A stretch of 30,103 nt of DNA from Promethearchaeota archaeon (lineage in GTDB: Archaea > Asgardarchaeota > Lokiarchaeia > Sigyniarchaeales > SOKP01). The stretch spans positions 1 through 30,103 of the forward strand of contig JAHLWS010000059.1 of NCBI GenBank assembly GCA_019057795.1, read 5' to 3'. Under the pieces are notes generated by a model that had not been told where the DNA came from, did no database searches, and saw only the letters and a program-made list of their open reading frames with translations. Below, in pieces: positions 3,823 to 28,738 of the stretch (positions are counted from its first letter, which is position 1; the number at the start of each line of letters is the position of its first letter). The position numbers were made by a program, and so were the translations under genes.

Positions 3823-3926
3823 AAATAAAATAATTTTATGCGTTAGTTTTGTAATTTTCAAATCGTTTTCTATAAGCAATCTAAATTTCTTTGAAGGGTT
3901 TCAAACTTAAACTTAAATAATTTTTA

Positions 3927-4000
3927 TTAAAAATTATAAATATGTACTTTATACTTATTATAAATATTCAAAATTAGAATCACAAAGGATCAGAATTCAA
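3927..4000 (+). promoter_or_regulatory. Putative archaeal promoter/leader of GTPase 2 (duplicated copy)
   Basis: TTAAAAATTATAAATA at 3927-3942, identical to 3179-3194 and 748 bp downstream; leader AATCACAAAGGATCAGAA. Confidence 0.6.
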
Positions 4001-8766: not shown

Positions 8767-9315
8767 TTATTTTTGTTTTTTTACCATACTTCTACTAATT
8801 ATTGCAAACAATTCCTCCACATTTTCACCGCTTTTTGAAGAACATTCGATATAACCAATAAAATTATTATCGTTGGCAAATTTAATGGCTTCTTCTTTGG
8901 GAACAGTTCTCATTCCTTCAAGATCGAGCTTGCTTCCAGCTAAAAGTATAGGTAATTTTTGATCGTGAATTTCGTTAGCTTCGTTAAAAACAGTTAACCA
9001 ATCGGTTAGATTTTTAAATGTGACATATCGAGTTATATCGTACATAAAAATAGTTCCTTTAGAGCCCATAACAGCGCCAGGTAAGAGAAATCTAAATTTC
9101 TTTTCTCCGGCAAAATCCCAAATTTGTAGAGAGATTTTTTTACCATCCAGCTCAAGTTTTTTTATATAGAAGTCCATTCCAATCGTAAGTTGATAGGTTT
9201 CTTTAAAAACCCCATTAAGAAAGCGGTGAGTCAAGGTAGTTTTTCCTACTCCCCCATCTCCGAAGATTGGGACCTTAAATTTTAGTGGATGGGGTTCAAA
9301 GTCTGAGTCCTTCAT
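8767..9315 (-). CDS. Rab-like small GTPase
   Basis: GDGGVGKT, TIGMDF (RabF1-like), SLQIWDFAGE, YDIT, SKLD, ECSSK; no prenylation motif. Confidence 0.92.
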   Translation of the reverse strand: MKDSDFEPHPLKFKVPIFGDGGVGKTTLTHRFLNGVFKETYQLTIGMDFYIKKLELDGKKISLQIWDFAGEKKFRFLLPGAVMGSKGTIFMYDITRYVTFKNLTDWLTVFNEANEIHDQKLPILLAGSKLDLEGMRTVPKEEAIKFANDNNFIGYIECSSKSGENVEELFAIISRSMVKKQK

Positions 9316-9495: not shown

Positions 9496-10902
9496 TTAGT
9501 TTTTATTTCTTGATTTTAAAATTTTTGCTCGTTCTCTCAAAATATCCCTAATTCTCTCTTTATCTTGGGTATACCAATTACGAGACAATGTCCACAAAAT
9601 TATACCAGGAATTACAAAAATAGTTATTATCACAGCACTAATTTTATAGTCCTGTCCGAAAATGGATATGAAAATACCTGCGATTAAAGGGCCCATACCA
9701 TAACCGATATTCTCTAAGAATTGATTCCATGAAACAATTTGGCCTTGAGCTTCTGGAAGATTTATTTCTTGTAGGATCGGTGGTTGATTGACCATGTATA
9801 AAGAAGATATGGCGTCAGAACTTAAAATTAAAACACCCATTACATATGTTATAGGAAGCGAAAAGAATAGGACGATGTTTGCCCCTTCTTCAGGCGTTAA
9901 AAAAGGCAATGGTACGAAAAACATTAAAACAAAAGTAATTGACCCTCCTACTAAAGAAAATATAATAAAACCAATCCTTCTGACATCATTTTTCTCTGCT
10001 AACTTATCTGACACTCGAGCGAGTAAAATTTGCCCTATAACGCGTCCAGTAACTCCAAAAATAACGATAAATAATCCTGTTGTTAGTGGAGAGAGATTAT
10101 GTGGAGGCGTTTGTAAATAGGGTAAAATAATCATATCTAAACTTCCCACAAATACACTGGAAAATATTCCTTCAATTAAAGCTGCAACATTAGTGCGAGA
10201 TAGCATAGTTCTACGCATTAATTCTTTATCCATATTAAAATCATATTCAATCGATCGATCATTAAGTACATCTCGTAATTCCTTGCTTTGAACACCCCTT
10301 TTTGGTTCCTTAACGTAAAAAAAAAATATTAAGCCCGAAATAAGAACCGCAATTCCTATACTTAAAAAATATAATCTCCAATACCCAAACTGCACTAAAG
10401 CACCAGATATTAGAAAACCAAGCATCATAAAGACGGATCCAAAAATACCAAAATATCCAAAGAATTTAGAGCGATGTTTTAATGGAACAATATCGTTAGA
10501 TAAGGAAACTATGGCGGGATAACTTCCTCCAGCAAAGAGAGCAAAAATTAGAACAAAAATAAAAAAATACCACCAGGTCTGTATTCCTTGACCGGCAATA
10601 GCGAAACCGAGCATAATCATGCAAAAACTTCTGGCAATAGATATTATTAATAAGATTTTTACTCGTGAATACTTATCAATAAGCCTACCAAGGAATAACC
10701 CTGAAAAAGAAGAAGTCCATAGAAGTGTGGTCATTAAAATTCCCATCTCTAGCGCGTGATAGGGTTCTCCTGGCCAAATTAGCGAAGACAGGGGTACCAT
10801 TAATATAATTATGCCCGCAAAGGCTATACTATTAAATCCATTGAGTAGATATACTGGCCAAATTAATTTATTATAAGATTGGTGAGAATCGTTTAATTCC
10901 AT
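9496..10902 (-). CDS. MFS transporter (spinster-like features)
   Basis: About 12 hydrophobic helices, motif A GRLIDKYSR, and WR..F...EPKRG. ATG at 10902 preferred over TTG at 10914. Confidence 0.88.
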   Translation of the reverse strand: MELNDSHQSYNKLIWPVYLLNGFNSIAFAGIIILMVPLSSLIWPGEPYHALEMGILMTTLLWTSSFSGLFLGRLIDKYSRVKILLIISIARSFCMIMLGFAIAGQGIQTWWYFFIFVLIFALFAGGSYPAIVSLSNDIVPLKHRSKFFGYFGIFGSVFMMLGFLISGALVQFGYWRLYFLSIGIAVLISGLIFFFYVKEPKRGVQSKELRDVLNDRSIEYDFNMDKELMRRTMLSRTNVAALIEGIFSSVFVGSLDMIILPYLQTPPHNLSPLTTGLFIVIFGVTGRVIGQILLARVSDKLAEKNDVRRIGFIIFSLVGGSITFVLMFFVPLPFLTPEEGANIVLFFSLPITYVMGVLILSSDAISSLYMVNQPPILQEINLPEAQGQIVSWNQFLENIGYGMGPLIAGIFISIFGQDYKISAVIITIFVIPGIILWTLSRNWYTQDKERIRDILRERAKILKSRNKN

Positions 10903-11012
10903 TTCTAACTTCAATTCTAAATTCTATAAATTCATAATTATATGAAATGGAAAATGAGAATTCAAATTTTAAATTGATGAAACATTACAGAATTTAAGAG
11001 TTTTTTATTTCA

Positions 11013-12464
11013 TTAAGGTTTTATTTGATGATCTGAGGGAGATGACATCCCTTCATTTGAATCTAAAATGTCAGCTCTTCCCTTTAATATCTCTCTTATG
11101 TTATAAGCATCAGAAGGAAACCATTTTATCGCAAAACCCCATAATATTACTCCGGGAAGAATACATATAGCAATTATTAAAATTGTGGATTGATAATTCA
11201 TGCTTGTCACAGCCAATAGGATTCCACTTAATAAGGGCCCCATACCTCTCCCTAAATTTTCCAAAAATTGATTCCATGAAACTATTTGACCTTGCGCTTC
11301 TGGCAAATTTATTTCTTGTAATAATGGACTTTGATTAACCATATATAGAGAAAAAATAGATCTTGATGCGAAGAACAAAGAACCCATTAACCAAATTATT
11401 GGGAGCGCCATTAAGAAAGGAACATCTTTCCCTTGCTCAATAGTCAAATGGGGCCATGGAATAAAGAAAAAAAGAATAAAAGTAAACAATCCTCCAATAA
11501 TAGCAACGATGATAATTGGTATTCTTATAATAGGTCGCTTTTTAGCTAATTTATCGCTTAACCTTGCTAGTAATAGCTGTCCAATTATTCCACCAGTTAG
11601 CCCAAAAGTAATCATGAAAATGCTAGTTGAAAATTCTGAAATATTGTGAGGTTCATTTTGGATAAGGTTAAGAATTAAGAAGTTAATAGAGCCCATTAGA
11701 ATCTGAGTAAATATTCCTTCAATTAAGGCAACTTTATTAGTTTTACTTAACATTGTTTTAAGCATAGTCTCCCGATTGATTTTAAAGTCGTAAATGACAT
11801 CTTTCTTTTTAAGGATATGTAACAATTCTTCTTGTTGCGCTCCTCTTTTAGGCTCATCGTTATGAATGGCAAAAATTAGGGCACAAATTAAAATACCTAA
11901 TCCAGTACCCCAAAAATACTGTCTCCACAGCCCGTTCTGCACTAAAAATGCTCCAATTAAAAATCCAAAAGTCATAGTAAGAGAGCGAACTATCTCATAA
12001 AAACCAAAAAAACGCGAACGAGAAGCTTTAGGAACGATATCGTTAGACAAAGATATTACGGCGGGCCAGCTTAATCCCGCAAACATCCCAAAAATACTTA
12101 TAAATACTAAGAAATATATCCAAGAGGACGAACCGCCTCCCTCCAATGCAAATCCAAGCATTACTATCGCAAGCCCCCTAAATATTGAAATAATAACGAT
12201 TATCTTTTTACGAGAGTATTTATCAATTAAGTGTCCAAATAATAATCCTGAGATCGAAGCAGACCATGATAGCACTGCAATTAATATTCCCATTTCTAAA
12301 GCGTGAGTTGGCTCAGTTGGCCACATAATTCTTGATATTGGTACGATAAGAAAGATAATCCCGCCCCAGGCAATACTTTGGAACCCATTAAGAAAATAAA
12401 TAGGCCATAATATGCGATTGTAGCTAATAGAATCTGCTGAATTATTAGAATTGATATTTTCCAT
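11013..12464 (-). CDS. MFS transporter, tandem paralog of 9496..10902
   Basis: GHLIDKYSR and EPKRG; shares the block QEINLPEAQGQIVSWNQFLEN with its neighbour. Confidence 0.88.
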   Translation of the reverse strand: MENINSNNSADSISYNRILWPIYFLNGFQSIAWGGIIFLIVPISRIMWPTEPTHALEMGILIAVLSWSASISGLLFGHLIDKYSRKKIIVIISIFRGLAIVMLGFALEGGGSSSWIYFLVFISIFGMFAGLSWPAVISLSNDIVPKASRSRFFGFYEIVRSLTMTFGFLIGAFLVQNGLWRQYFWGTGLGILICALIFAIHNDEPKRGAQQEELLHILKKKDVIYDFKINRETMLKTMLSKTNKVALIEGIFTQILMGSINFLILNLIQNEPHNISEFSTSIFMITFGLTGGIIGQLLLARLSDKLAKKRPIIRIPIIIVAIIGGLFTFILFFFIPWPHLTIEQGKDVPFLMALPIIWLMGSLFFASRSIFSLYMVNQSPLLQEINLPEAQGQIVSWNQFLENLGRGMGPLLSGILLAVTSMNYQSTILIIAICILPGVILWGFAIKWFPSDAYNIREILKGRADILDSNEGMSSPSDHQIKP

Positions 12465-12561
12465 AAGAACTGAGCTCTAATAATAATATCCCTTATATGG
12501 TTTCTAAAATGAGCTTTCTAATATTAATGTAATGAAATATAAAATCCTAAATTTTAATTTG

Positions 12562-13755
12562 TTAATTAGTTTTAATTTTGTTTTTAGAAAGTAGATATAT
12601 AACTAAGCTTAACAACGATAATAGGGATAAAAAGAAAAATGCTAAGTTTGCATCTACCGCAGCGATAAAACCACAAAGTATTGGCGCAAAAAAGAATCCA
12701 ATTCCAATCGCAGTTTCAAAATAAATGCTGTATTTTGAAGTGTTGTTAGCTATATTCCGAAATAGTATTAGTTTGAAAGCAAGGGTATAATAAAAAGAAT
12801 TAAAAATTCCAAACGCACAAAAGAGAATTGCAAAAATAAATAAGTCTTGATTTAATCCCATCAAGAAAAGGGAAAATATTATAATTAAATTGGATATAGG
12901 AATCATTTTTTTGGTGGTTTTTATTTTAAAGTCCATAGATTTTGAAATTGAAATCGTTTGAGTACTCATTCTTAAAAAGAAAAATAGATAATTAGTGAAG
13001 AGAGCGAAATTTAGTATTTCAGATTTAATCGGATAAATTAATCCCATACCTCCAATCAAAAAACCATATATTCCAATCATAAAAAGCGGCAGATATAAAG
13101 GAAAAGAAATGTGCTCTCTTTGAGGAATTACTTTTACTCCTTCGTCAATTGGAACGATAATCTCTTTGTCCAAACTATGAGATGGTTCTTGAATAATTAA
13201 AGCCATACTAAAGCCGAAAATAGCAAAAAATAACGCAAACAAAAACATAATCTGAATATTTTCAATATAAAACAAAATAAAGAAACCTAAAGCGTAGCTA
13301 AAAATTCCTCCAAAATTCCAAGCTAAACTATACTTTTTCATTAATTTATCCTTTAAGGAGTTATTTTTACGATATTCTTCTGAATTTGATATCGCCGAAA
13401 GTGCGCCCATTAAAATTGGCCAAAACAATCCTAAAAATGTTCCATCTAATATTAACAAGAAATAAATTAACAATGGATCTTTTGAAAACTGCAAGATTAC
13501 TTGAACAAATAAGAAGCCTAATGATGATATGATAATCGTAGGTTTTACGCCAAGCTTTTTCTGAACATTTCTAAAGATTAAAGGCGAAAATAAGTATGCC
13601 ATGGCTGTTCCAGAAATAATGAATCCAATAATTTCTGGATTTAATCCTATCTCAATTAAATAAAGTGGAATAGCTAAACCAATCGCCACACCTGTCGCAA
13701 CGCGCGTAAATGCTAAAATAAATATTGGAAATACTCTGTAATTATCTGCTTTCAT
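12562..13755 (-). CDS. MFS-type transporter (divergent)
   Basis: 397 aa with about 12 hydrophobic segments and a central hydrophilic loop. Confidence 0.75.
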   Translation of the reverse strand: MKADNYRVFPIFILAFTRVATGVAIGLAIPLYLIEIGLNPEIIGFIISGTAMAYLFSPLIFRNVQKKLGVKPTIIISSLGFLFVQVILQFSKDPLLIYFLLILDGTFLGLFWPILMGALSAISNSEEYRKNNSLKDKLMKKYSLAWNFGGIFSYALGFFILFYIENIQIMFLFALFFAIFGFSMALIIQEPSHSLDKEIIVPIDEGVKVIPQREHISFPLYLPLFMIGIYGFLIGGMGLIYPIKSEILNFALFTNYLFFFLRMSTQTISISKSMDFKIKTTKKMIPISNLIIIFSLFLMGLNQDLFIFAILFCAFGIFNSFYYTLAFKLILFRNIANNTSKYSIYFETAIGIGFFFAPILCGFIAAVDANLAFFFLSLLSLLSLVIYLLSKNKIKTN

Positions 13756-13982: not shown

Positions 13983-14393
13983 TTAGTCACTTTCTAAAAA
14001 GCTTTGCATTTCGGTTAATTTTAATAAAAATTTTGGAGCTTTCATTTTTATTTTACGGGCAACAACTTTCTTTATGATATCGCTTTGCGACAGTTTTCCC
14101 TCACCAATCTCATCAAATAGTGCTTTTGTCGTTTTCATCATGCCATCCCAACCAAGTTTTTCCTCTGTTAAGTCCTTCTTATCTTTGTTTTCAATTCCCT
14201 CTACGGAAACTGTTCCTTTGTCAACAGTTACTAAAGCGGCATATTCACCATCTTTTGGATTTAATAAAATCTTAAAGGATTCTTTAGCGAATTTCTCTTT
14301 AAATTTATCAATTGAATTTAATGGCATATAAAGATTAAAAACGCCCTCTGGATAAGTTCCTTCTTTAACCTTACCAAGTTTATTTTCTGACAT
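13983..14393 (-). CDS. SCP2 (sterol carrier protein 2)-like lipid-binding protein
   Basis: Pattern ALVTVDKGTVSVE...WDGMMKTT..LF.EI..G.LS....VVARKIKMK...LLKL resembles the SCP2 fold. ATG at 14393 preferred. Confidence 0.65.
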   Translation of the reverse strand: MSENKLGKVKEGTYPEGVFNLYMPLNSIDKFKEKFAKESFKILLNPKDGEYAALVTVDKGTVSVEGIENKDKKDLTEEKLGWDGMMKTTKALFDEIGEGKLSQSDIIKKVVARKIKMKAPKFLLKLTEMQSFLESD

Positions 14394-14834
14394 ATTTGTC
14401 AATTTTTTTTCTGTATTATTAATAATATATAAAGTTATTTCAACTCCATGAAATATAAATGTTTTAGTGTCTTAATAAAAAGAAAGTTACTTTACCTTAA
14501 TATGAAGCAAGAATATTAGTTTTTATTTCACTTGAGTTTGGACTTTCTTTTTAGAAATAGTTTTTTATATATCTTATTTGTTAGTGGAATAGTTTGAAGA
14601 AAATCAGCGTGACGATACTTATACCCTTGAAGTTTAATCTGTTCTTGCATCTTAACTATCTCAATATTATATATATTTCCTAGTTTACCATGTAAAGTTC
14701 GCATATTAAAGAATTAATATTAAAAAGAATTTTTTCAGTATGATTAGGTTTTTATATAGAAATTCATTTAAGTAAACTTAATTCATCTATAGAATAGAAA
14801 AGTTATTAAAATTTTTGCCCTTTTTTAATAAATA

Positions 14835-15617
14835 ATGCTTGCTGACAATCAGTTAATTAAACGGCTTCAAAATGGAGCGATTCGGGGAATTATCCTCGAT
14901 TTTGATGGAACTATTCTCGATATCAGAAAAACACTTAAAGACGCAATAGAAGAAGTTTACGAGGAAAAACACATTTCAGCGGACATTGAAAGCACAATGC
15001 AAGAAATAGGGGCTTTAATGGAAACAATTCAAGGGCTTCCGCTTCCAAAAATCGTATTGGAGTCTTTCAATTTATTTAAATACATAGAATCGTTCCAACC
15101 GTTAACATATTTAAAAAAACTACGAATAGCAACGAAAATTTTCACGCGTTATCTAGAGTACGCGAAAGATGCATCGTTTTATCCAGAAGCAACTGAATTT
15201 ATTAATAAATATAAAAAAACTTATGATTTATTTATTGTTTCTCACAACCAGACTAAGAATATAATTCCTCATTTAGAAGAAAAAAAAGTAAAAAGCTTTT
15301 TTAAAGGAATTTTTGGAGCAGATCTACTTCCCGCTTTAAAACCCGACCCAAACGCGTTAAACCCTGTTTTTGAAAGTTATAAATCCTGCAAATTGAAGGA
15401 ATTTGTAATGATTGGAGATATGCCTTCAGATATTGAAGCAGGAAGAGAAGCTGGAGTTTGGACGATTGGTGTTGCGAGCGGAGTAAGTAAAAGAGAGATG
15501 TTGGCGAAATTTAACCCAAGCTTATTAATTGACTCGTTAGATGAATTAATTAGAATAATTGAAAATAAAAATTTATCAAATTCAAATACTCAAAATAAGA
15601 TTGAGATAAAATCCTAG
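14835..15617 (+). CDS. HAD-superfamily phosphatase (subfamily IA, C1 cap)
   Basis: Motif I DFDGT, motif II VSH, motif III KPDP, motif IV GDMPSD. Confidence 0.9.
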   Translation: MLADNQLIKRLQNGAIRGIILDFDGTILDIRKTLKDAIEEVYEEKHISADIESTMQEIGALMETIQGLPLPKIVLESFNLFKYIESFQPLTYLKKLRIATKIFTRYLEYAKDASFYPEATEFINKYKKTYDLFIVSHNQTKNIIPHLEEKKVKSFFKGIFGADLLPALKPDPNALNPVFESYKSCKLKEFVMIGDMPSDIEAGREAGVWTIGVASGVSKREMLAKFNPSLLIDSLDELIRIIENKNLSNSNTQNKIEIKS

Positions 15618-15621
15618 GAGG

Positions 15622-17307
15622 ATGAAATTAATGGTGCTTAAAGAAGAATATAAAACTTCAGCAGATACGAGTATTATAAAAACTACTGAAGAAAAAGAAA
15701 AGGAAGATTTAGAGTTTGGTAAACGACACCAGAACTCGATGTATAAAATATTAAAATATAATCCAATCGATCCATTAAACGACCTCTATCGTCGAGCTAT
15801 TGACCAATTGAACATTGGAGAAATAGAGGGAAAACTCCAATATTGGACGGCATTTGTTTATATAAAGTTTTTTGCCCGATTGCTCTGGAATTTTAAAGTA
15901 GAATATCCTTTAGGGAATTTGTTTCCGGAATACGGGGCAGGCATTCTTGTAGGAAGCCACGAGTCTCATTTGGACCCATTCTTCTACGGTTCTGCTTGTC
16001 AAAGAAGAATCCAATACATGAGTAAATTGGATAATTTTAAAACTCCTTTAGTTAAAACGCTTTTTACAAATTTAGGGGCCTTTAAAATAGATCGAAATAA
16101 TCCTGAGCAAGGCTGGGATAGGGCTAAAGAGATTATCAGAGGTGGTGAATGGGTAGGGATTTTCCCTGAAAGTACCCGGTCTAGGGAGGAAACTGGGTGG
16201 GAACTAGGAGAGTTTAAAACGGGGGCAGTTCGACTCGCGATTGAAATGGGTGTGCCGATTGTTCCAATGGCAGTGATTGGGTCTAGAAATGCGTTACCAA
16301 AAGGTAATTTGGTCATGAAACCAACTCAAGTCAAAGTACGCGTAGGTGATCCGATTTACTACGATAAGTATAATATTGACGATGTTTCTTACGAAGAAAT
16401 TAAGAGACTAACCAATGAATTAAGACAGATTGTTCTTGATTTAAGAGAATACGTCATTGTGGACACAAGGAAAAAGAAAAAGGAAGAAGAGCTATCGATT
16501 GGTTCCCCTGAGGATGCTGAAAAACCCAAAAAGTCAAATTCAGCATTGAGATATTTAAAAGATATAGGAATGGGCACATTACAACTTGTTGATGACATCT
16601 GGTACTCCTTCATAAAATCGTTAGAAGTATTAGGACTACGCGAATATTTAGCATCTCCATCGCAAGCTATCTATGGGTGGGCAGTCCATAATTTAGGCAA
16701 CTTAATGATACCATATAAAGCAATTGACTTTGAAAAATATATTCCTGATACCGGGGCAGCAGTTTTTTGTACCAACCACAATTCTGAGTGGGACGTAATT
16801 ATGACTGCGACTTGTATGACATACCATAAAAAACGAATTCTTTTTCAAATGGCGAAACAGGGTTTGTTTAAATTCCCAATCGTTAACGCTTGGGTTAGAA
16901 CCCACCACGCGTTTCCCTTAAAAAGGGGACAACACGACATTGATTCGTATAATTACGCTAAACATCTTCTTGATAACGGAGAATTGGTTATGATGTACCC
17001 CGAAGGAACTACCAATCCAGGCGGTGGTGAACTCCTAGAGGGCCACACAGGTGCTATGCGATTAGCTATTGAAAAGCAAGTACCCATTTTATTAGTAGGA
17101 ATTACGGGTACAGAAAATACGTACCCAAAACACGCTAAGATGTTGAACTTCTATAGGGGATCTATATTAAAAGCAGGACCCCCATTCATGGAACATAAAA
17201 AACATTGGGGCAAACCAATGCCAGATTACGATGAATTAAAGCGTTTAACGGATAATATGATGGCTCAAATTAAAGATTTACTCTTATATGATAGCCCAGA
17301 TGCCTAA
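15622..17307 (+). CDS. Glycerolipid acyltransferase with two tandem PlsC/LPLAT domains
   Basis: Domain 1: HESHLD (HX4D), YMSK, IDR, FPESTR, FKTGA, PIVP. Domain 2: NHNSEWD, QMAK, PLKR, YPEGT, HTGA. GGAGG at 15617-15621 suggests the real start is ATG 15631. Confidence 0.92.
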   Translation: MKLMVLKEEYKTSADTSIIKTTEEKEKEDLEFGKRHQNSMYKILKYNPIDPLNDLYRRAIDQLNIGEIEGKLQYWTAFVYIKFFARLLWNFKVEYPLGNLFPEYGAGILVGSHESHLDPFFYGSACQRRIQYMSKLDNFKTPLVKTLFTNLGAFKIDRNNPEQGWDRAKEIIRGGEWVGIFPESTRSREETGWELGEFKTGAVRLAIEMGVPIVPMAVIGSRNALPKGNLVMKPTQVKVRVGDPIYYDKYNIDDVSYEEIKRLTNELRQIVLDLREYVIVDTRKKKKEEELSIGSPEDAEKPKKSNSALRYLKDIGMGTLQLVDDIWYSFIKSLEVLGLREYLASPSQAIYGWAVHNLGNLMIPYKAIDFEKYIPDTGAAVFCTNHNSEWDVIMTATCMTYHKKRILFQMAKQGLFKFPIVNAWVRTHHAFPLKRGQHDIDSYNYAKHLLDNGELVMMYPEGTTNPGGGELLEGHTGAMRLAIEKQVPILLVGITGTENTYPKHAKMLNFYRGSILKAGPPFMEHKKHWGKPMPDYDELKRLTDNMMAQIKDLLLYDSPDA

Positions 17308-17319
17308 ACGAGAATTAAA

Positions 17320-18396
17320 GTGGAATTAATGGAAGAACCTCAACAAACAGAGAAGAAACAGATCAAAGTTGGGATACCAAGGGCACTTCATTTTTATAGA
17401 TATTTTCCATTTTGGAAAAAATTACTGGAAGAATTAGACGCTGAAATCGTTATAAGTCCCCTTACAAACAAGAAAATCGTTGAGGAAGGCGTAACACACG
17501 GATTCGGGGAGTTGTGTATTCCAGTCAAGATATATTACGGTCAACTCTTAAGGTTAGTAAAAGATCATCCCGATTTAGACTTTGTTTTTGTGCCTAGGTA
17601 TGTTTCGGAAGTAAAAGATTCGTACTTTTGCCCTAAATTTTTGTCTTTACCAGATGTGATTAAAATTCTACCTGACATTCCAAGGATTTTAAATTTTGAA
17701 GTAAACGTTAAAGAGTTTCCGATATCGACAGCTGCCGTTGAACTCGGAAAGCAACTTGGAAAAAACCAAAACAAAGCCTTAAATGCTTATAGAGAAGCGC
17801 AGAAATATTTCGACGAATATCACGACTTTATTCGAGAGGGCGCCTCAGTTAACCACGCTTTAAGGTTAGTCGAAAGAAATCGACCTTTTACCTTACCAAA
17901 AAAAAAAAGCGAAGGAGATATACGATTTTTGCTATTAGGGCATGGTTATAACATATTTGATACTTTTATTAATCTCGATTTTCAAAAAAAATTGAAAGAC
18001 CAAGGAGTTAATCATATTACCATTGAAAACCTGCCAGAATCTATTTTCAAGACGCCCGTTATAGTGAACCCAAGAGGGGCAAAATTACAAAATTATTGGA
18101 GACACGAAGAGGAAATTATGCAGGCTATTCGATTTTTCCTTACGAAGGGACGCGACGAAATAGATGGCGTAATATTCTTAATCAGCTTCGCATGCGGACC
18201 AGATAGCCTTATTTCTGAACTAATCATGAGAGACATGAAAGTTGTAGGACTTCCCTTTTTAGAAATTATTATGGACGAGCATAGCGGGGAAGCCGGATTG
18301 CTCACAAGAGTAGAAAGTTTTGTCGAAATGATCCGAAGAAAGAAAAAGGGATTGACAGTCGGGAGAAGGGATAAATTAACGATTAAATCTGCTTAA
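17320..18396 (+). CDS. DUF2229 / acyl-CoA dehydratase activase-related Fe-S subunit (PlsA C-terminal-half-like)
   Basis: VGIPRAL..Y..FPFW, ELCIPVK, FCPKF, LLGHGYN, SFACGPD, DEHSGEAG..TRVESF. Alternative start ATG 17329. Confidence 0.85.
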   Translation: MELMEEPQQTEKKQIKVGIPRALHFYRYFPFWKKLLEELDAEIVISPLTNKKIVEEGVTHGFGELCIPVKIYYGQLLRLVKDHPDLDFVFVPRYVSEVKDSYFCPKFLSLPDVIKILPDIPRILNFEVNVKEFPISTAAVELGKQLGKNQNKALNAYREAQKYFDEYHDFIREGASVNHALRLVERNRPFTLPKKKSEGDIRFLLLGHGYNIFDTFINLDFQKKLKDQGVNHITIENLPESIFKTPVIVNPRGAKLQNYWRHEEEIMQAIRFFLTKGRDEIDGVIFLISFACGPDSLISELIMRDMKVVGLPFLEIIMDEHSGEAGLLTRVESFVEMIRRKKKGLTVGRRDKLTIKSA

Positions 18397-18566
18397 TGAA
18401 AAAACTATTAACTATTAAACTCTTAGAAGAAAAATCTTATATCTTTAAGAGTAGAATTCTCGAATTTGAAAAAGTATTAGTTGATTATTATATAAAAATA
18501 GCAGATTTAGATACAGAATCAAAAAAAGTCGCATATATTTTCGAAATTCGTGGATTGAACAAATAA
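18396..18566 (+). CDS. Small hypothetical protein (56 aa), not in the ORF track
   Basis: The ATG overlaps the upstream stop (TAATG). Manual translation: MKKLLTIKLLEEKSYIFKSRILEFEKVLVDYYIKIADLDTESKKVAYIFEIRGLNK*; it ends 11 bp before the next ORF. Confidence 0.55.
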   Translation: MKKLLTIKLLEEKSYIFKSRILEFEKVLVDYYIKIADLDTESKKVAYIFEIRGLNK

Positions 18567-18577
18567 AATTAAATAGA

Positions 18578-18868
18578 ATGAGTAATATGAGAGATCCTAA
18601 AAGAATTGGAAGAATATGTAAATTACTGGAAGAAAAGTGGATGGATGCTCCAGAATATCGATTAGGGCAATTTTTACGTGTATTTATTTTTAATTTCGAA
18701 CCTGATAATTATCCAAGTATATTTAGTCAAGAAGATGATAAAACAGAAGAGAGATTATATAATTTAGATATAGATTTAATTAAAATTAAAACTCAAAATC
18801 CTAATGTCTATGTTGAGGATTTGAAAAAAGAAGATTATAGATCATTGAAAGATACTGCCAATTTTTAG
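18578..18868 (+). CDS. Small hypothetical protein of the MRDPKRI type (possibly YihD/DUF1040-like)
   Basis: MRDPKRI.RI..LL...W...P..RLGQ...F..EDD pattern, recalled from small proteins often found in mobile or phage contexts. Confidence 0.6.
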   Translation: MSNMRDPKRIGRICKLLEEKWMDAPEYRLGQFLRVFIFNFEPDNYPSIFSQEDDKTEERLYNLDIDLIKIKTQNPNVYVEDLKKEDYRSLKDTANF

Positions 18869-19223
18869 ATAACTACATGTCCATATGTTAAGCGAGAATT
18901 TGCCATTAACTTCTTCAATATATATAGGTCCAGTTCATCCATAAACAGTAGAAAAAAATATAACTTTCAATAATAGTTTTTCTAATATGGATTTAATCTA
19001 AATTAAATGAAAATATAAGTTTCTTAGGTTTTGAAAAGGATAGGTTTATTGATATCAATTTTTTAATTATTAATTTTGCTCCGTTTTTTTATTAAAATTA
19101 TCATACAATTGATAATCTGTTTGTATTGGGTAATTTTTTATTTAATCAAATACTTGATTGAGTAAAATTAGGTTAATCTTTGAACAAAGATACTGACTAT
19201 TAACTTGAGGATTTTTCCAAGAA

Positions 19224-20414
19224 ATGATAATTACCTTTCCCAATATGGGGCCCAACTGGGTAGCTTTTAAGACTCTATTTACAAGCCTTGGTCTAGATGT
19301 AATTATTCCAGATCCAACGAATCGGGAAGCAATTAAAATCGGAGTCAAGTATTCCCCTGAATTTGTGTGCTTTCCGTTTAAAGCGACTATTGGAGATTTT
19401 GTGAATGCTATAAAAAAGGGAGCAGATACGCTGATCATGGCAATAGATTGCGGACCGTGTAGATTTGGCTTTTACGCGAGCGTCCAAGAACGCATTTTAA
19501 AAGATATGGGTTATAAAGACATCACTGTAATTCCTTTAGACCAAGCAGATCTCTTAGATTTTAAATGGGTCAAAACTCTTCAAGAAGTTAGTGGTCGAAA
19601 AGATTTGTTTATGTATTCAAAATTCGTTAAGGCTGTTATTTTTTTCCTAAAAAAAGCTAAGCTGTTAAACGATATTCAAACTGCCGAAGGTATCTTCCGA
19701 GCTTACGAGCGCAATCAGGGAGATACGACGGATTTAATTAAAAACTTATTGATTAAGCTTGATCAAGCTAATTCGCTCTCAGAATTGAAAAAATTCAAAA
19801 GCGTTATTAAGCAAGATTTTAGCAATTTAGATATTGATAAGACCCGAAATCCTCTACGGGTTGGTGTTTCGGGAGAGATTCACATTAGTTTGGAACCCTA
19901 TGTAAATTTAGATATCCGTAGAAAGCTGGGTGAGATGAACATTGAAGTACACCAGAGCCTGAGCTTATACGATTGGGTTGTCCATAAATTTCATTTAAAT
20001 TATCACAGGAAGTGGTTAGAGCACCTTTCGCGACCTTACGTTCCGATGGATATTGGAGGAGAATGTCAATGGGTGTTAGGCGAATATATAGACAAAGCTA
20101 AAGCGGGTTTCGACGGCTTTTGCCACATTTACCCATTTTTATGCATGCCGGAAGTGACGGCTCGAACGATTATAACTAACAAACTCAAGGGAGTCTACGA
20201 CCTCCCCATTATTTACTTCTCTTTCGACGAGCAGAGCGGATTGGCGGGCTTCAGAACGAGGTTAGAAGCATTCTCTGATTTAATGTATGGTCGTAGGAAC
20301 AAAGAAATTGAAAATAACGCCAAATTCGTAGCAAATGGTAATAAAAAGATTTATCCGCATTATGGCGGTTTATTTTATAATGAATGCTTTCAATTAATTC
20401 AAAATTCGGTTTAA
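19224..20414 (+). CDS. 2-hydroxyacyl-CoA dehydratase D-component-like Fe-S subunit (PlsR-like, 'CoA protein activase')
   Basis: FVCFPFK, CGPCRFGFY, VGVSGEI, YPFLCMPE, FDEQSG.AG..TRLEAF. Confidence 0.85.
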   Translation: MIITFPNMGPNWVAFKTLFTSLGLDVIIPDPTNREAIKIGVKYSPEFVCFPFKATIGDFVNAIKKGADTLIMAIDCGPCRFGFYASVQERILKDMGYKDITVIPLDQADLLDFKWVKTLQEVSGRKDLFMYSKFVKAVIFFLKKAKLLNDIQTAEGIFRAYERNQGDTTDLIKNLLIKLDQANSLSELKKFKSVIKQDFSNLDIDKTRNPLRVGVSGEIHISLEPYVNLDIRRKLGEMNIEVHQSLSLYDWVVHKFHLNYHRKWLEHLSRPYVPMDIGGECQWVLGEYIDKAKAGFDGFCHIYPFLCMPEVTARTIITNKLKGVYDLPIIYFSFDEQSGLAGFRTRLEAFSDLMYGRRNKEIENNAKFVANGNKKIYPHYGGLFYNECFQLIQNSV

Positions 20415-20432
20415 TGAAAAAGGTGAAATTAT

Positions 20433-21458
20433 TTGGTAGAAGTTACTGAAAAAGTTGCTGAAGAGGGGAAAAAAAAAGATGCTTTCCTTGGTATTGACAT
20501 TGGAAGCGTGAGTTGCAAATTTGTTCTAATGGATACAGATGGAAATTTACTTACTAGTGTATTTTTACGAAATAGAGGTTCTCCCATCGACTCAGCCAAG
20601 GCAGGAATGGCAGAGTTACGCTATAACATAGAACAAAGCGAAAATTTAGGCGACTATGAGATACGTTGTTGTGGTACCACAGGTTCGGCACGGTATTTAA
20701 CAAAAGCAATCGTAGGTGCCGATCTCGCTAAAACTGAGATAATAGCCCACGCTGTTGCGGCACAGACCATCTATCCCGATGTAAGAACGATATTAGAAAT
20801 TGGCGGTCAAGATTCGAAAATTATCATTCTACGGGACGGAATAATTGTAGATTTTGCGATGAATTCCGTATGCGCTGCGGGAACGGGTTCATTTCTCGAT
20901 CATCAAGCAGCGAGACTTGGAATTGCTATAGAGGAGTTCGGCGCTTACGCTATAAAATCAAAAAATCCTGTGAGTATTGCGGGAAGATGTACTGTATTCG
21001 CAGAATCCGATATGATTCACAAGCAAAACGCGGGTTACACTAAAGAGGATATTATTGCAGGTTTATGCGATTCACTTGTTCGCAACTATATGAACAACGT
21101 AGGTAAGGGTAAAGACTTAGAAGAACCTATTGTGTTTCAAGGTGGCGTTTCTTACAACGAAGGGATCATTGAAGCATTTGAAAGACATTTAGGTTGCAAA
21201 GTAATTGTTCCTGAATTTAATGTCCTAATGGGGGCTATAGGAATGGCAATTTTAGTTAGAGATTTCTATTTAGAGCACGAACATCAAACTGTATTTCGAG
21301 GACTCGAAGTAGCTGAAATTGAATTCACGACCTCAGCGTTTAACTGCGGAGACTGTCCTAATAATTGCGAAATAGTCCAAGTAAAGATGCCCCAAGAGGG
21401 AAATAAGATTATAGCGCGTTGGGGCTCTCGTTGTGGTAAATGGGACCAAGTAGATTAA
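20433..21458 (+). CDS. ATP-dependent [4Fe-4S] activase (HgdC/BadF-BadG/BcrA-BcrD ASKHA family) with C-terminal Cys motif
   Basis: GIDIGSVSCK, TTGSAR, EIIAH, EIGGQDSK, MNSVCAAGTGSF, RCTVFAESD, and tail CGDCPNNC...GSRC. GGTGA RBS lies upstream of the TTG start. Confidence 0.92.
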   Translation: MVEVTEKVAEEGKKKDAFLGIDIGSVSCKFVLMDTDGNLLTSVFLRNRGSPIDSAKAGMAELRYNIEQSENLGDYEIRCCGTTGSARYLTKAIVGADLAKTEIIAHAVAAQTIYPDVRTILEIGGQDSKIIILRDGIIVDFAMNSVCAAGTGSFLDHQAARLGIAIEEFGAYAIKSKNPVSIAGRCTVFAESDMIHKQNAGYTKEDIIAGLCDSLVRNYMNNVGKGKDLEEPIVFQGGVSYNEGIIEAFERHLGCKVIVPEFNVLMGAIGMAILVRDFYLEHEHQTVFRGLEVAEIEFTTSAFNCGDCPNNCEIVQVKMPQEGNKIIARWGSRCGKWDQVD

Positions 21459-21618
21459 TTTGGAGTTTTATATTCTATTCTTATCTTTTGATATCATAAT
21501 AGTTTGAAAAGTATGATATACTTTATATTTAATAAATGAATATTTGATTAAAATAAGAAAAAACATATCTACTAAAGTTATTAAAATATTGTCCAATTTT
21601 TAATAAAAGAGAAGTAAA

Positions 21619-21813
21619 ATGACAGAATTTTTTAAGCAATTAAAGGACTTGGGCGAGGGATTTCTCGAGTCCTTGCAACATAAAACAAAATTATCGACAA
21701 TATTTGATATTTATTTAGAAAAAGTAATCCCATCATTTGTTTCCGAAAAAGAGTTAAAGGAATATTACGAGAGACGGATGGAGGAAGTTAATAATTTCAT
21801 AGACAAACTATAA
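21619..21813 (+). CDS. Small helical hypothetical protein
   Basis: 64-aa ATG ORF, 14 bp upstream of the next gene, with amphipathic pattern. Confidence 0.6.
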   Translation: MTEFFKQLKDLGEGFLESLQHKTKLSTIFDIYLEKVIPSFVSEKELKEYYERRMEEVNNFIDKL

Positions 21814-21827
21814 ACGAGGGAAAAAAC

Positions 21828-22517
21828 ATGGTTGAAACATCTTCCGAGGAGAATGAAACGAAAGGAAAAGATAAGATGCTTAGTAAGAACCTTATGCAAG
21901 ATATTTTTTACGCAGTTACCAAAGGTTTAGGGAACCTAGGTTTAACGGCATTCGCAGACTTACAAATCCTGGGAAGAGAAAACATTCCTATTATAGGAAA
22001 AGCGATATTAACTACGATAAGCGACAACGCGTTAAGAGACATGGCGATTATAAGTCAAGTTTCTGGACGAAGAATTCATTTTATGGTTCATCATAAACTA
22101 ATGAAGAATCAAATGTATGGTCCCGTTCTTAAATCGTTAGGCATGTTTCGCAGTACCCTCGATAAAGACGATACCGTCCCTATAGATAAGGTGTTCCACT
22201 ATCTTAACGAAGTTGGGGATCTTGTAGCCATGACGCCAGAATCAAAACTTACCCCCGAAATTCAAGTGAAAGCAATGGCGGGAATCATTAAATTTGCGGT
22301 TGCTGGAGAGGCTCCTATAATTCCCATAGCAATATATACGGAAAAAGCGAAAATATTAGGTATGTTTAAATCACAGGGGTTAAGAGTAAAAATCGGGGCC
22401 CCGCTTAAGGTAGAAAAACGATTATCTCGACCAAAATATCGAGATGAGAGATACGAACTCGCTGAGGATATATTAAGAATTATTGATTCCCTTAAACCAC
22501 AACCCGATATTGAATAA
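21828..22517 (+). CDS. Degenerate PlsC/LPLAT-fold protein lacking the catalytic His
   Basis: GRENIP..GKAIL, RRIHFM, MTPES (for FPEG), PIIPIAI, VKIGAP. The HX4D position reads TISDNALRD. Confidence 0.75.
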   Translation: MVETSSEENETKGKDKMLSKNLMQDIFYAVTKGLGNLGLTAFADLQILGRENIPIIGKAILTTISDNALRDMAIISQVSGRRIHFMVHHKLMKNQMYGPVLKSLGMFRSTLDKDDTVPIDKVFHYLNEVGDLVAMTPESKLTPEIQVKAMAGIIKFAVAGEAPIIPIAIYTEKAKILGMFKSQGLRVKIGAPLKVEKRLSRPKYRDERYELAEDILRIIDSLKPQPDIE

Positions 22518-22550
22518 GTATAAAATTAAATATAAAAATGAGGTTTTATT

Positions 22551-22814
22551 ATGGAAAATAGCCAAAGTTCAGAAATGAACGATTTTCAGATAAATTTAAC
22601 CAGCTTAAGCGAAGAATTAGAGCAAAGAAAAGAGGATCTTATAAGAGAATTAAATACCCCTGGAAAAATTGAGAACTCGTCTGAACCAAATGCGGAATTA
22701 GGCGATGTTATAGGAGATATCTTCTATAAATCGATGAAGAACTTCTTTGAAGTAGGGTTTAAACTTGCCGAAAGTTTAAATCTTGAGTTTAGCACAGAAA
22801 ATCAGGACGAGTAA
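22551..22814 (+). CDS. Small acidic hypothetical protein
   Basis: 87-aa ORF with GAGGT RBS; coiled-coil-like N half and DIFY..K motif. Confidence 0.7.
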   Translation: MENSQSSEMNDFQINLTSLSEELEQRKEDLIRELNTPGKIENSSEPNAELGDVIGDIFYKSMKNFFEVGFKLAESLNLEFSTENQDE

Positions 22815-25737: not shown

Positions 25738-26385
25738 GTGTCTAATGATAAATTTTATGAAGAAATATCTGAAGCAATCGTAAGTCTTGACAAAGAAAAA
25801 ACTATTGAATTGGCCAATAAAGCAATTCAAGAAAAAATGAATCTTCTTGAAGTAATAGAGAAAGGTTTTGGAGCGGGGATCCGTCAAATAGGGGTTTTAT
25901 GGGACGAAGGAGAATTTTTTCTGCCGGAATTAATGCTTGGTGGGACTATTATGCAAGAGTCTATGCAGATTCTTTTTCCACACATAGAAACAGAGAGAGA
26001 TAGCATCTCGAATGGAAAAGTGGTAATTGCAACAATAGAAGGAGACATTCACTCAATAGGAAAAACAATTGTCGCTACAATGTTGAGTGCCAACGGTTTT
26101 GAAGTTTTTGATCTAGGCGCTGACGTTCCAGCTGAAAAAATTATAGAAATTGCTGTTGAAAAGAATGCGGATGTCATTGGAGTTTCTGCTCTATTGACTA
26201 CAACTATGATCGGCCAAAAAAAGATAATAGAAATACTCGAAACTAAAGGTATCCGAGACAAATTCAAAGTGATACTTGGGGGTGCTCCAGTTTCTAAAGC
26301 GTGGGTAGATGAGTGCAAAGCAGATGGATTTGCTGGTAGCGCCGTAGAAGCTGTTAATCTAGTCAAGAACCTTTTAAAAATTTAA
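25738..26385 (+). CDS. Corrinoid (B12-binding) protein, MttC/MtbC family
   Basis: Cap domain (G.LWDEGEFFLPEL), DxHxxG motif EGDIHSIGK, DLGADVP, SALLTTTM, GGAP. Confidence 0.93.
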   Translation: MSNDKFYEEISEAIVSLDKEKTIELANKAIQEKMNLLEVIEKGFGAGIRQIGVLWDEGEFFLPELMLGGTIMQESMQILFPHIETERDSISNGKVVIATIEGDIHSIGKTIVATMLSANGFEVFDLGADVPAEKIIEIAVEKNADVIGVSALLTTTMIGQKKIIEILETKGIRDKFKVILGGAPVSKAWVDECKADGFAGSAVEAVNLVKNLLKI

Positions 26386-26411
26386 AAAACGCTTATTTGA
26401 GGTAAATTGCT

Positions 26412-27293
26412 ATGTTATTCCACGATTGGTTAAAAAACGATTCGAAAATCATATTATTTGATGGAGGAATGGGGTCAGAGATATTTAAACATGGAATCAC
26501 GCTAGGAAAGCTTCCCGATACCCTTAATATCGACCAACCGGACATAATTTTTAAGATACATAAATCTTATTACGACGCAGGCGCAGATATGTGCCAAACA
26601 GGTACTTTTGGATCTAGCTTTTTAAATTTGCAAGGCTATAGAATTGAAAGCCAAATTAAAGAGTTAAATGAGAGCGCCTTAAAAAACATAAAAAGAGCGT
26701 GCCCTCCCAATCGTTTAATTGTAGGCGATATTGGCCCATCTGGTGTATTTAGACCTCCAGTAGGAAAAACAACCGCCGACCAATGGGTTTCCAGTTATGT
26801 AAAACAAGTAAATATTTTAGAACAAGGAGTAGATCTCTGGCATATCGAGACTATTTCAGACATTGAAGAAATGGAAGCTGCGATAAAAGCAATAAGAGAG
26901 ATTTCAAAAAAACCCATCATAAGCTCAATGACATACAAAAAAACAAAAAGGGGGTTTTTTACCATTATGGGCGATTCTTTAGAAAAGTGCGTGCGAATAC
27001 AAGAAGATAGAAAAGTTGACGTGATTGGAGCTAATTGTACATTAGGAAGCGATGAAATGATAGGATTAATAAAAGAACTAAAAGAGCTTACTAATAAACC
27101 CATATCGGCAAAACCTAACGCGGGTCAACCAAGAGTCGATCAAAACAATAGAGCCGTTTACGACCAGCCAATAAAGGATTTTGTAAGCGATATTCGCGAA
27201 ATTATTCAAATAGGCGCTAAAATCGTAGGAGGGTGCTGTGGTACGTCTCCTGAAACGATTAAGGAAATCAAAGAAGTTATTAATTCAATATGA
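26412..27293 (+). CDS. Homocysteine S-methyltransferase domain protein (stand-alone MetH N-terminal module)
   Basis: FDGGMGSE, IHKSYYDAGAD, GDIGP, IET, GANC, KPNAGQP, GGCCGTSP (three Zn-binding Cys). Confidence 0.92.
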   Translation: MLFHDWLKNDSKIILFDGGMGSEIFKHGITLGKLPDTLNIDQPDIIFKIHKSYYDAGADMCQTGTFGSSFLNLQGYRIESQIKELNESALKNIKRACPPNRLIVGDIGPSGVFRPPVGKTTADQWVSSYVKQVNILEQGVDLWHIETISDIEEMEAAIKAIREISKKPIISSMTYKKTKRGFFTIMGDSLEKCVRIQEDRKVDVIGANCTLGSDEMIGLIKELKELTNKPISAKPNAGQPRVDQNNRAVYDQPIKDFVSDIREIIQIGAKIVGGCCGTSPETIKEIKEVINSI

Positions 27294-27313
27294 AATAATA
27301 AAGAGATATAAAT

Positions 27314-28738
27314 ATGACGATTATTAGACCGCAAATTAAGGTATTAGATGAAGATTACAAAAATAAAATTTTTAACGAAGCTAAAAACATTCTTGAGACC
27401 CAAGGTGTTTTTGTAGAAAATGAAGACGCGATAGAATTGTTCGCTAAGAACGGAATTACCCATAAGGATTCGCGATTTTTTATCCCTTCTGATATTGTAG
27501 ATAAATGCTTGAGTAGTGTCCCTAATGAGATCAAACTATTTGATCGAGAAGGTAACGAGCATATTAACTTAAAGAACGATGAGGTTCACTTCGATCCCGG
27601 TTCAGCAGCAATTTTTATACTTGATGTAAATACAGGAGATATTAGAGAAGCTCTAACAGAAGACTTTATCAAGTTCTCAAAGGTTGTTGAACAATTAGAA
27701 TACATCGAAGCGCAAAGTACAGCAATAGTTTACAATGATGTTCCTAAAATAGCTCAAGATTGGCATCGATTGTATATAGCGCTCTTAAATTGTTATAAAC
27801 CCGTTATTACCGGAACATTTCGTAAAGAAAGTTTTTCAATTATGAAGGAGATTTTACTATCGTGTAGATTGTCAGAAAAAGACCTTGCTAAAAAACCATT
27901 GGCTATATTTGATGCGTGTCCAAGTCCACCACTGAAATGGTCCGATTTAACCACTCAATCGGTTATAGACGCAGCTAGTAGTATGATACCTTCGGAGTTT
28001 GTTTCTATGCCTTTAGCTGGAGCAAGTGCGCCGATGTCGTTAATTGGGTGTATTACTCAACACTGTGCTGAATGTCTTGCGGGAGTTGTAATTGCACAAT
28101 TGACGAAAAAAGGAGCTCCGTTAGTGTGGGGAGGGTCACCAGCAATATTGGACATGAAAAGAGGTACAACCCCGATGGGCGCAATTGAAACGATGATGAT
28201 TAACTTAGGAGATGTGGAAATCGGACGATTTCTAAAAATGCCTACTCATGCTTACATGGGTCTAAGTGACTCCAAAGTTCTAGATACCCAAGCTGGTTTC
28301 GAAGGAGGTATGGGAGCTCTTTTAGCTGGACTTGCTGGAGTTAACATGGTTTCAGGTGCCGGCATGTTAGATTTTGAATCCACGCAGAGCATTGAAAAAT
28401 TGGTAATCGATAACGAAATAGTAGGAATGGTAAAACGTCTCTTAAGAGGTATCGAAGATTACGGTGCTCCGTTCGCATCAGATATCCTTAAAGATTTCGA
28501 CGATAAAGAGGAATTGCTCTCCCACCCTTCAACATTAAAGCTATTCAGAAAAGAATTATTTATGGCTGGACCTGTAATAGATCGCTTGTCTCGAAACGCT
28601 TGGAAAGAAAATGGCTCTAAGTCTGCAAGAAAAAGAGCAAAGGAGCAGGCGACTAAACTCGCTGAGAAAGCTTCTTTAAAACCTATTGATGATAACCTAG
28701 CTAAAGAATTAGAAACTATTACTTCAAGGAATTTGTAA
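27314..28738 (+). CDS. Trimethylamine methyltransferase (MttB) superfamily protein, non-pyrrolysine type
   Basis: SPPLKW, LAGASAPMSLIG, GAPLVWG, DMKRG, GAIE, SDSKVLDTQAGFE, GAGML, KLVIDNE. Leu rather than an amber codon precedes SDSK. Confidence 0.92.
   Translation: MTIIRPQIKVLDEDYKNKIFNEAKNILETQGVFVENEDAIELFAKNGITHKDSRFFIPSDIVDKCLSSVPNEIKLFDREGNEHINLKNDEVHFDPGSAAIFILDVNTGDIREALTEDFIKFSKVVEQLEYIEAQSTAIVYNDVPKIAQDWHRLYIALLNCYKPVITGTFRKESFSIMKEILLSCRLSEKDLAKKPLAIFDACPSPPLKWSDLTTQSVIDAASSMIPSEFVSMPLAGASAPMSLIGCITQHCAECLAGVVIAQLTKKGAPLVWGGSPAILDMKRGTTPMGAIETMMINLGDVEIGRFLKMPTHAYMGLSDSKVLDTQAGFEGGMGALLAGLAGVNMVSGAGMLDFESTQSIEKLVIDNEIVGMVKRLLRGIEDYGAPFASDILKDFDDKEELLSHPSTLKLFRKELFMAGPVIDRLSRNAWKENGSKSARKRAKEQATKLAEKASLKPIDDNLAKELETITSRNL

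Follow-up and report, generated by a model that had tools for sequence, protein, structure and literature searches.

A stretch of 30,103 nucleotides from a member of the Promethearchaeota (positions 1 to 30,103 of contig JAHLWS010000059.1, assembly GCA_019057795.1; GTDB lineage Asgardarchaeota, Lokiarchaeia, Sigyniarchaeales, SOKP01), referred to below as the window, contains at 14835-22814 a gene cluster in which a fused double acyltransferase of the PlsC type (PlsC2x) immediately precedes a reductase module made of two catalytic subunits (subA and subB) and an activase. The comparisons presented here point to a PlsC-coupled split variant of the PlsA/PlsR/Ger kind of enzyme, real and conserved, whose proposed function in lipid synthesis appears plausible. 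The best single explanation is that subA, subB and the activase would reduce the acyl ester produced by PlsC2x to an ether, a reading built on family-level homology and gene context to which about an even chance of being correct is assigned. Throughout the text, loci, genomes and proteins are labeled L, G and P, respectively, and families of Lokiarchaeia and other Asgard archaea f, with f1 being the family of the window and f2 its sister.

The contig is archaeal, as it encodes Ras-family GTPases and its closest loci are found in Promethearchaeota metagenome-assembled genomes (MAGs), including a closed chromosome. An earlier note, made from the DNA letters only, had described six co-oriented genes in this region, and all of them are present and intact on the + strand according to the list of open reading frames (ORFs), Pfam and NCBIfam; the region holds eight co-oriented ORFs. 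The six genes encode a HAD-IA family phosphatase (14835-15617; PF13419, E 1.9e-23), the double PlsC/LPLAT acyltransferase PlsC2x of 561 residues (15622-17307; two PF01553 stretches, 166 bits), the Red1-like DUF2229 catalytic subunit subA (17320-18396), the Red2/PlsR-like second catalytic subunit subB of 396 residues (19224-20414), a single-domain ATP-dependent activase of the HgdC/BcrAD type with 341 residues (20433-21458), and AT229, a protein of 229 residues with an acyltransferase fold that lacks the catalytic His (21828-22517; PF01553, 26 bits, cut-off 23). They are followed on the same strand by orf87 (22551-22814), which encodes a small acidic protein of 87 residues with no family match in Pfam or NCBIfam. 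The tight spacing that had been noted for the first three genes is also confirmed, the gaps being 4 bp between the HAD gene and PlsC2x and 12 bp between PlsC2x and subA. However, the view of a single operon needs to be qualified, because subA and subB are 827 bp apart, of which ~590 bp are inserted DNA missing from the related locus L004, and the genes are therefore probably organized in at least two transcription units.

The protein subA matches PF09989 (DUF2229) with 147.3 bits, against a cut-off of 29.4, over profile positions 1-217 of 218. In contrast, the full-length HGD-D domain (PF06050) of the 2-hydroxyacyl-CoA dehydratases is not found in it: only its C-terminal 60 residues (280-338) match this family, at 28.1 bits with a cut-off of 28.4, and profile matches to HGD-D/HadC structures in the PDB are confined to the same 60 residues. 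When compared with P0125, a fused bacterial activase-activase-DUF2229 protein of 1425 residues that served as reference for the pairwise alignments, subA aligns to residues 672-989 with 28% identity. It holds exactly three cysteines (C66, C104 and C292), which correspond to a 3-Cys iron-sulfur site and are invariant in 72 of 72 Red1 sequences, whether split, fused to the second subunit (AB-fused) or of the fully fused type. The AlphaFold2 model of subA (predicted local distance difference test score, pLDDT, of 70) retrieves with Foldseek 19 top matches that are all Had, DCCP, Bzd or Mbd subunits, with E values of ~1e-9. The sequence is also well conserved, with an identity of ~80% across more than 100 Lokiarchaeial proteins.

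For subB, which had been called an HgdD-like subunit, Pfam reports only a short DUF2229 N-terminal match, and that name is thus not borne out by the domain search; the protein does align with the Red2/PlsR-like C-terminal part of P0125 (residues 27-350 to 1043-1398, 22% identity, E 1e-15), and its own 3-Cys site (C49, C79 and C307) is invariant in 23 of 23 Red2 sequences. The activase is recognized by PF01869 (162 bits) and by TIGR00241 (197 bits, cut-off 125), and its closest solved structures are HadI and HgdC (E ~1e-38 to 1e-34). It aligns with 43% identity to P0125 residues 319-640, which comprise the second activase domain and the tail that follows it. All 13 systems that were checked, split as well as fused, carry this CxxCxxxC...C tail behind the activase domain. 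Activase, subA and subB are hence the same modules, in the same order, as those of P0125, but distributed over three genes, whose order on the chromosome is Red1, Red2, activase; no fused form of the reductase was found in the genome of the window. The HgdC-type activase and the catalytic-subunit fold, the latter taken from the model of subA, place the system in the BCR/HAD radical-enzyme superfamily. Within it, the colinear mapping, the invariant cysteines and the Cys tail, together with a dehydratase match limited to the last 60 residues of subA, identify from sequence a three-component member of the DUF2229 family and not a 2-hydroxyacyl-CoA dehydratase. The assignment of the domain set of PlsA/PlsR and Ger made in the earlier note is therefore upheld, and the subunits do not group with the dehydratases of amino-acid fermentation.

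Both active sites of PlsC2x are intact. The HX4D motifs (H113/D118 and H386/D391) and the PEGT-type motifs FPExTR and YPEGT, one per domain, are invariant in 27 orthologues, and the closest solved structure is that of PlsC from Thermotoga maritima (5kym, E 1e-20), followed by human GPAT1. A search of the whole genome of the window revealed only three PF01553 domains, all of them in PlsC2x and AT229, while PlsY-like genes are located elsewhere in the same genome. In AT229 the HX4D position reads S-x5-D in all 15 orthologues, with Ser in place of the catalytic His and strongly conserved flanking sequence, and the protein is for this reason predicted to be probably non-catalytic. AT229 follows the activase gene in most complete loci, and orf87 follows AT229 in 10 loci, with identities of 32-91%. 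The HAD protein has a HAD_2 domain and reaches no NCBIfam equivalog (best score 87 bits, cut-off 225). No Rosetta-stone fusion was found, as DUF2229 occurs in 0 of the 120 best PlsC2x relatives and PF01553 in 0 of 10 longer subA relatives. The complex prediction for PlsC2x and subA, both given as alignments, scored 0.20 with the mark set at 0.32, which speaks neither for nor against an interaction.

The conservation of gene order was studied in 80 loci from GTDB species representatives, whose subA proteins are 69-97% identical. Of the 73 informative f1 loci, 71 have PlsC2x upstream of subA and co-oriented with it, at 150 bp or less in 59 of them and with a median gap of 24 bp, and a co-oriented upstream HAD gene is present in 50 of the 56 loci informative for it. 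After subA, the order subB-activase-AT229-orf87 follows directly in some loci, and inserted material separates subA from subB in others. Orthologues of subA are encoded in 24 of 25 sampled f1 genomes and in 2 of 2 from f2 (43-46% identity), whereas whole-genome searches of the rest of the phylum found none, with only paralogues of 33-36% identity in f5; orthologues of subB were detected in ~70 of 101 f1 genomes. PF01553 is present in 25 of 25 f1 and 2 of 2 f2 genomes and also in f14, f22 and f25, and in 0 of 13 f5 genomes. The range of the cluster is accordingly one order of Lokiarchaeia (f1 plus f2). The earlier attribution to an Asgard-like archaeon is correct for the organism, but the term Asgard overstates the distribution of the cluster, while the linkage to acyltransferases, whose conservation the earlier note had set as a test, does hold in f1, in f2 and in the locus L096 described next.

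The acyltransferase (AT) genes are separate in f2, where the locus reads AT, AT, subA, subB, activase, and a further MAG of an uncultured archaeon (L096) shows the order AT, subA, activase, subB. In both L095 and L096, the acyltransferase gene and subA overlap at their stop and start codons. The coupling of PlsC to subA thus survives down to 43-47% subA identity and through fusion and fission of PlsC, which occurs as one, two or fused domains. Lokiarchaeum GC14_75 encodes a subA orthologue (Lokiarch_08770, 82%), and a PlsC2x orthologue (71%) is present in its source metagenome. Two copies have been recovered outside this range: a whole-cluster copy, 85-88% identical, in a MAG labeled Candidatus Nanopelagicaceae bacterium (L061, DATKTW010000084.1), and a second one in a genome from another Asgard family, f16, that is 76% complete (G032:C6). 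Both are probably mis-binned Lokiarchaeial contigs.

A natural deletion of the reductase is provided by G084, a 100% complete congener (locus L094, G084:C6:64000-78000), which keeps HAD-PlsC2x-AT229-orf87, the last with 44% identity, and cleanly lacks subA, subB and the activase gene. No DUF2229 gene was found anywhere in this genome. Such a pattern fits a reductase that acts after the acyltransferase and is optional to it. Three other genomes have subA and a fused pair of the type described below, without a split subB.

What has been observed, namely the gene content, the motifs, the homology of each module and the conserved order, would fit a pathway in two stages. Presumptive in it are the acyl donor and its acceptor, the ether formed and any complex between the proteins. 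In the first stage, to judge from its family membership and intact motifs, PlsC2x would place one or two acyl esters on an acceptor of the glycerol-phosphate type, with G3P, G1P and a lyso-archaeal lipid as candidates, and the HAD enzyme would remove a phosphate at some step. In the second stage, the three-protein enzyme of the DUF2229 (PlsA/PlsR/Ger) family would act on the acyl ester: the activase presumably couples ATP hydrolysis to the transfer of a low-potential electron onto the 3-Cys iron-sulfur sites that subA and subB carry, as HgdC-type systems do, whereupon both subunits would convert the ester into a vinyl or alkyl ether by reducing its carbonyl, a step proposed by analogy with the characterized fused relatives. 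AT229 may serve as a substrate-binding accessory.

Insertions and rearrangements recur immediately downstream of the subA stop codon, which makes this site a hot spot for both. In the window it is occupied by the ~590-bp insertion (18397-18990, + strand), which lies outside the proposed pathway, is missing from the 95%-identical relative L004 and is present in L003. Neither of its two ORFs, orf56 (18396-18566) and orf96 (18578-18868), has a Pfam match; orf96 belongs to no family and gives only weak atlas leads to small phage-type proteins. In 39 of 80 species, less than 1.5 kb separates subA from the contig end, and many f1 genomes have stray subB fragments, copies of its first 60-80 codons, beside subA or beside inserted modules. 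Between the insertion and subB, ~110 bp upstream of the latter, a perfect 7-bp inverted repeat can be read from the sequence (ATTATCA-N6-TGATAAT, 19097-19116). The ~150 bp around it are almost identical in L004, and it is a possible operator or regulator site.

In the other loci where subA and subB are set apart, the inserted material consists of two kinds of additional DUF2229 systems. A PlsA/PlsR-type pair, consisting of an activase-activase-DUF2229 protein of ~980 residues and a Red2-like protein of 462 residues, is encoded in 24 of 101 f1 genomes and, in the loci that were read, just downstream of subA. In L031 the pair is adjoined by a 3-hydroxyacyl-CoA dehydrogenase gene inside the locus. 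The PlsA-like frame of L031 (12722-15673) is open for 983 codons, with activase similarity from ~12761 and the first ATG, GTG or TTG at 13076, suggesting either that the gene uses an unusual start codon or that its 5' end is damaged. A second, paralogous set comprises a FAD_binding_4-subA' fusion, an activase' and a subB'. In G114 (L091, G114:C38:72000-91900; P0121-P0123) the split, the FAD_binding_4-Red1 and the PlsA/PlsR-type systems are nested in one locus, with all three between PlsC2x-subA and subB and the PlsA/PlsR-type pair between subA and subB. The FAD domain of the fusion was considered as an alkyl-dihydroxyacetone phosphate synthase-like domain. This candidate was discarded, as its closest relatives are cytokinin dehydrogenase and DprE1, with AGPS appearing only at E 7.5e-6; by sequence, it is a generic domain of the VAO family and gives no link to lipids.

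Upstream of the cluster, the divergent gene orf139 (13983-14402, - strand) belongs to the context and not to the core. It encodes a small protein with no Pfam match and a probable SCP2-like (lipid-carrier) fold, and it is conserved upstream in genus-level loci. Its AlphaFold2 model has a pLDDT of 68, and the consistent Foldseek matches are SCP2 domains (E 3e-3 to 1e-1), including 2cx7, with a TM-score of 0.52-0.55, and the SCP2 domains of alkylsulfatases; SCP2 is also an atlas lead. Beside orf139 lie three MFS transporter genes (9496-13755), one of which, MFS3, is a conserved neighbor in many f1 loci. The possibility that they encode LplT or other lysolipid transporters was rejected, given that they yield generic MFS matches only. 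Elsewhere in the window, several genes for Ras/Rab-like GTPases are found at 3253-4570 and 8767-9315, and a corrinoid protein and a homocysteine S-methyltransferase adjoin an ORF of 474 residues (27314-28738), within 25738-28738.

The family to which the reductase belongs is large. An exhaustive search returned 2613 relatives, most of them split proteins of ~330 residues with 32-48% identity, together with AB fusions of 690-770 residues. In maximum-likelihood (ML) trees rooted on Red2, the Red1 domains of the fused type form one clade nested among split forms. The clade of the Asgard subA (starred in the trees) also holds f2, the archaeon of L096, the FAD-fused paralogue and L083, a locus whose neighbors, YbeY and D-Ala-D-Ala ligase, look bacterial and which lacks PlsC.

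Against this background, the ester-to-ether proposal, already advanced in the earlier note, draws support from homology and synteny, and several observations weigh against it. The fused proteins (~1400 residues) are only 22-29% identical to the split module, and the ML trees place the Asgard subA apart from the fused-type clade. That separation is one of ML topology only, because an approximately unbiased (AU) test of the Asgard subA and the fused-type Red1 as a single clade does not reject their union (p = 0.113). Besides, the trees were built without the characterized references CPE1194/1195, Tmari_0479 and SHJ90043, and among the fused-type proteins used only the cluster of P0130 carries a name (Coprobacter fastidiosus). 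Split modules with no PlsC neighbor are found in L083, L084 and L085, on bacterial or unassigned contigs (the L084 cluster includes an Omnitrophota protein), as well as in Asgard f5, so the ancestral substrate of the family need not be a PlsC product. The activase of the window has a single PF01869 domain and hence lacks the tandem activase domains of the BBD core. In subA, the near-invariant His of the GH motif (67 of 72 Red1 sequences) is replaced by Gln at residue 75 (17542-17544). This change is shared by 55 of 82 f1 orthologues, whereas basal f1 members, f2 and the paralogues retain His, and it may alter catalysis. Moreover, no clear transmembrane segment was found in PlsC2x or in the other cluster proteins, and the one cultured Lokiarchaeon that has been analyzed contains, according to the citation of that work in PMC13400652 and with a caveat about the method, archaeal lipids only. 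On the other side stand the colinear modules, the invariant cysteines, the Cys tail, the concentration of all genomic PF01553 domains in the cluster and the conserved adjacency of PlsC2x and subA, in addition to the likeness of the subA model to BCR/HAD subunits, the overlapping codons, the PlsA/PlsR-type pairs at the locus and the deletion in G084.

Other explanations have been considered. The reductase could act upstream of the acyltransferase and modify the acyl donor, for example through dehydration or reduction of a hydroxyacyl or enoyl thioester in the manner of 2-hydroxyacyl-CoA dehydratases, so that PlsC2x would transfer an unusual chain. The substrates of every solved relative of subA (HadBC, Bzd/Mbd and DCCP) are CoA thioesters or small molecules, split modules often have no PlsC beside them, and the 3-hydroxyacyl-CoA dehydrogenase gene of L031 would fit such chemistry. 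However, the DUF2229 score of subA is far above that of HGD-D (147 vs 28 bits), the only characterized DUF2229 enzymes act on lipid esters (PMC13159169), the cluster has no gene for a CoA-transferase or CoA-ligase, and PlsC2x persists in G084 without the reductase, on which it consequently does not depend. Donor modification is thus considered unlikely. The same low probability applies to the proposal that the cluster makes no bulk membrane lipid and instead remodels or scavenges other esters, such as bacterial lysolipids taken up from outside, chimeric isoprenoid/acyl lipids or a storage or signaling lipid, with a reductase substrate unlike that of PlsA or Ger. The conserved divergent MFS genes and the SCP2-like protein, the lack of transmembrane segments in every cluster protein, the lineage-specific His-to-Gln change, which hints at altered chemistry, and the FAD-fused and fused-type paralogues, which suggest several substrates, are in line with it. 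Nevertheless, the MFS proteins carry no signature of LplT or any other lipid transporter, PlsC2x most resembles bona fide LPAAT and GPAT enzymes, and a cluster found in 24 of 25 sampled f1 genomes at ~80% identity is more typical of a core function.

It is very improbable that the acyltransferase and reductase genes are mere neighbors with no shared pathway, brought together by hitch-hiking of gene order or by the hot spot itself. That hot spot, the location of subB and the activase gene often kilobases away or on other contigs, and the loss of the reductase alone in G084 are what this explanation has in its favor. It has to face an adjacency that three lineages retain down to 43-47% identity, the overlap of stop and start codons, the persistence of this adjacency through PlsC fusion and fission, and the gathering of three different DUF2229 systems at one PlsC locus. 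Reduction of the PlsC2x product to an ether therefore continues to be the preferred explanation. A bolder extension of it, held tentatively and with the balance of probability against it, is that glycerol ether lipids of a non-isoprenoid or a mixed isoprenoid/alkyl kind are made by one order of Lokiarchaeia. The double PlsC would acylate glycerol-phosphate or a lyso-archaeal lipid, the hitherto uncharacterized PlsC-coupled split DUF2229 clade would reduce the ester, and up to three paralogous reductase systems at one locus (split, FAD-fused and PlsA/PlsR-type) would tune the products.

How eukaryotes, descending from an archaeal cell with ether/isoprenoid lipids, came to have acyl membranes of the bacterial type is a long-standing open question, for which the PlsC genes of Lokiarchaeota have long been invoked as a hint without functional context. 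This hint now becomes a defined cassette of five to seven genes, in which the sole PlsC genes are nearly always joined to a reductase module of the PlsA/Ger family. If the bolder extension is correct, close relatives of eukaryotes would have an archaeal ether-lipid route independent of prenyltransferases. The cassette also offers the first testable context for the large uncharacterized group of split DUF2229 modules.

Parts of the system had been recognized before. PlsC and PlsY were already known in Lokiarchaeota (PMC6737245, PMC13400652), and Ger homologues were reported in 2022 in Lokiarchaeota, including Prometheoarchaeum, and in Heimdallarchaeota, with matches filtered for 30% coverage or more (PMC13159169), a setting that would be expected to catch fused rather than split proteins. 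Full-text literature searches found no paper describing the physical coupling of PlsC and DUF2229 genes. Compared with the bacterial PlsC (LPAAT), PlsC2x shares the HX4D and PEGT motifs and differs in having two catalytic domains in one protein of 561 residues, in that no hydrophobic anchor was found, and in being nearly always followed by subA. With HgdABC, HadBCI, Bzd/Mbd and DCCP, the module of the window has in common the ATP-dependent activase and the catalytic-subunit fold, but not the DUF2229 domain or the Cys tail of the activase, which are features of the window.

Ger, represented by Tmari_0479 of T. maritima and SHJ90043 of Desulfatibacillum alkenivorans, belongs to the same family and superfamily as the window module. 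The T. maritima enzyme has the architecture BBDHDDH, and every confirmed alkyl-ether producer retains the BBD core of two activase domains plus DUF2229 (PMC13159169), which the window module lacks. Sequence does not yet separate PlsA from Ger, and homologues without an activation domain have no known role (PMC13274423); in glycerolipids, the characterized members of the family reduce the acyl ester at sn-1 or sn-2 (PMC13159169, PMC13274423). The PlsA-PlsR system of Clostridium perfringens (CPE1194/1195) divides the same activation and reduction modules between two genes (PMC12838417), whereas single-gene forms occur in Enterococcus, Lactococcus and Bifidobacterium. PlsA/PlsR shares with the window PF01869, PF09989 and a C-terminal PF06050, the order activase, Cys tail, Red1, Red2, and the invariant 3-Cys sites, and the colinear mapping suggests that PlsR is the equivalent of Red2/subB. 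PlsA/PlsR has two activase domains, whereas the window module consists of three proteins with one activase domain and, unlike PlsA/PlsR, is coupled to PlsC genes, to an acyltransferase-fold protein without the catalytic His and to a HAD phosphatase.

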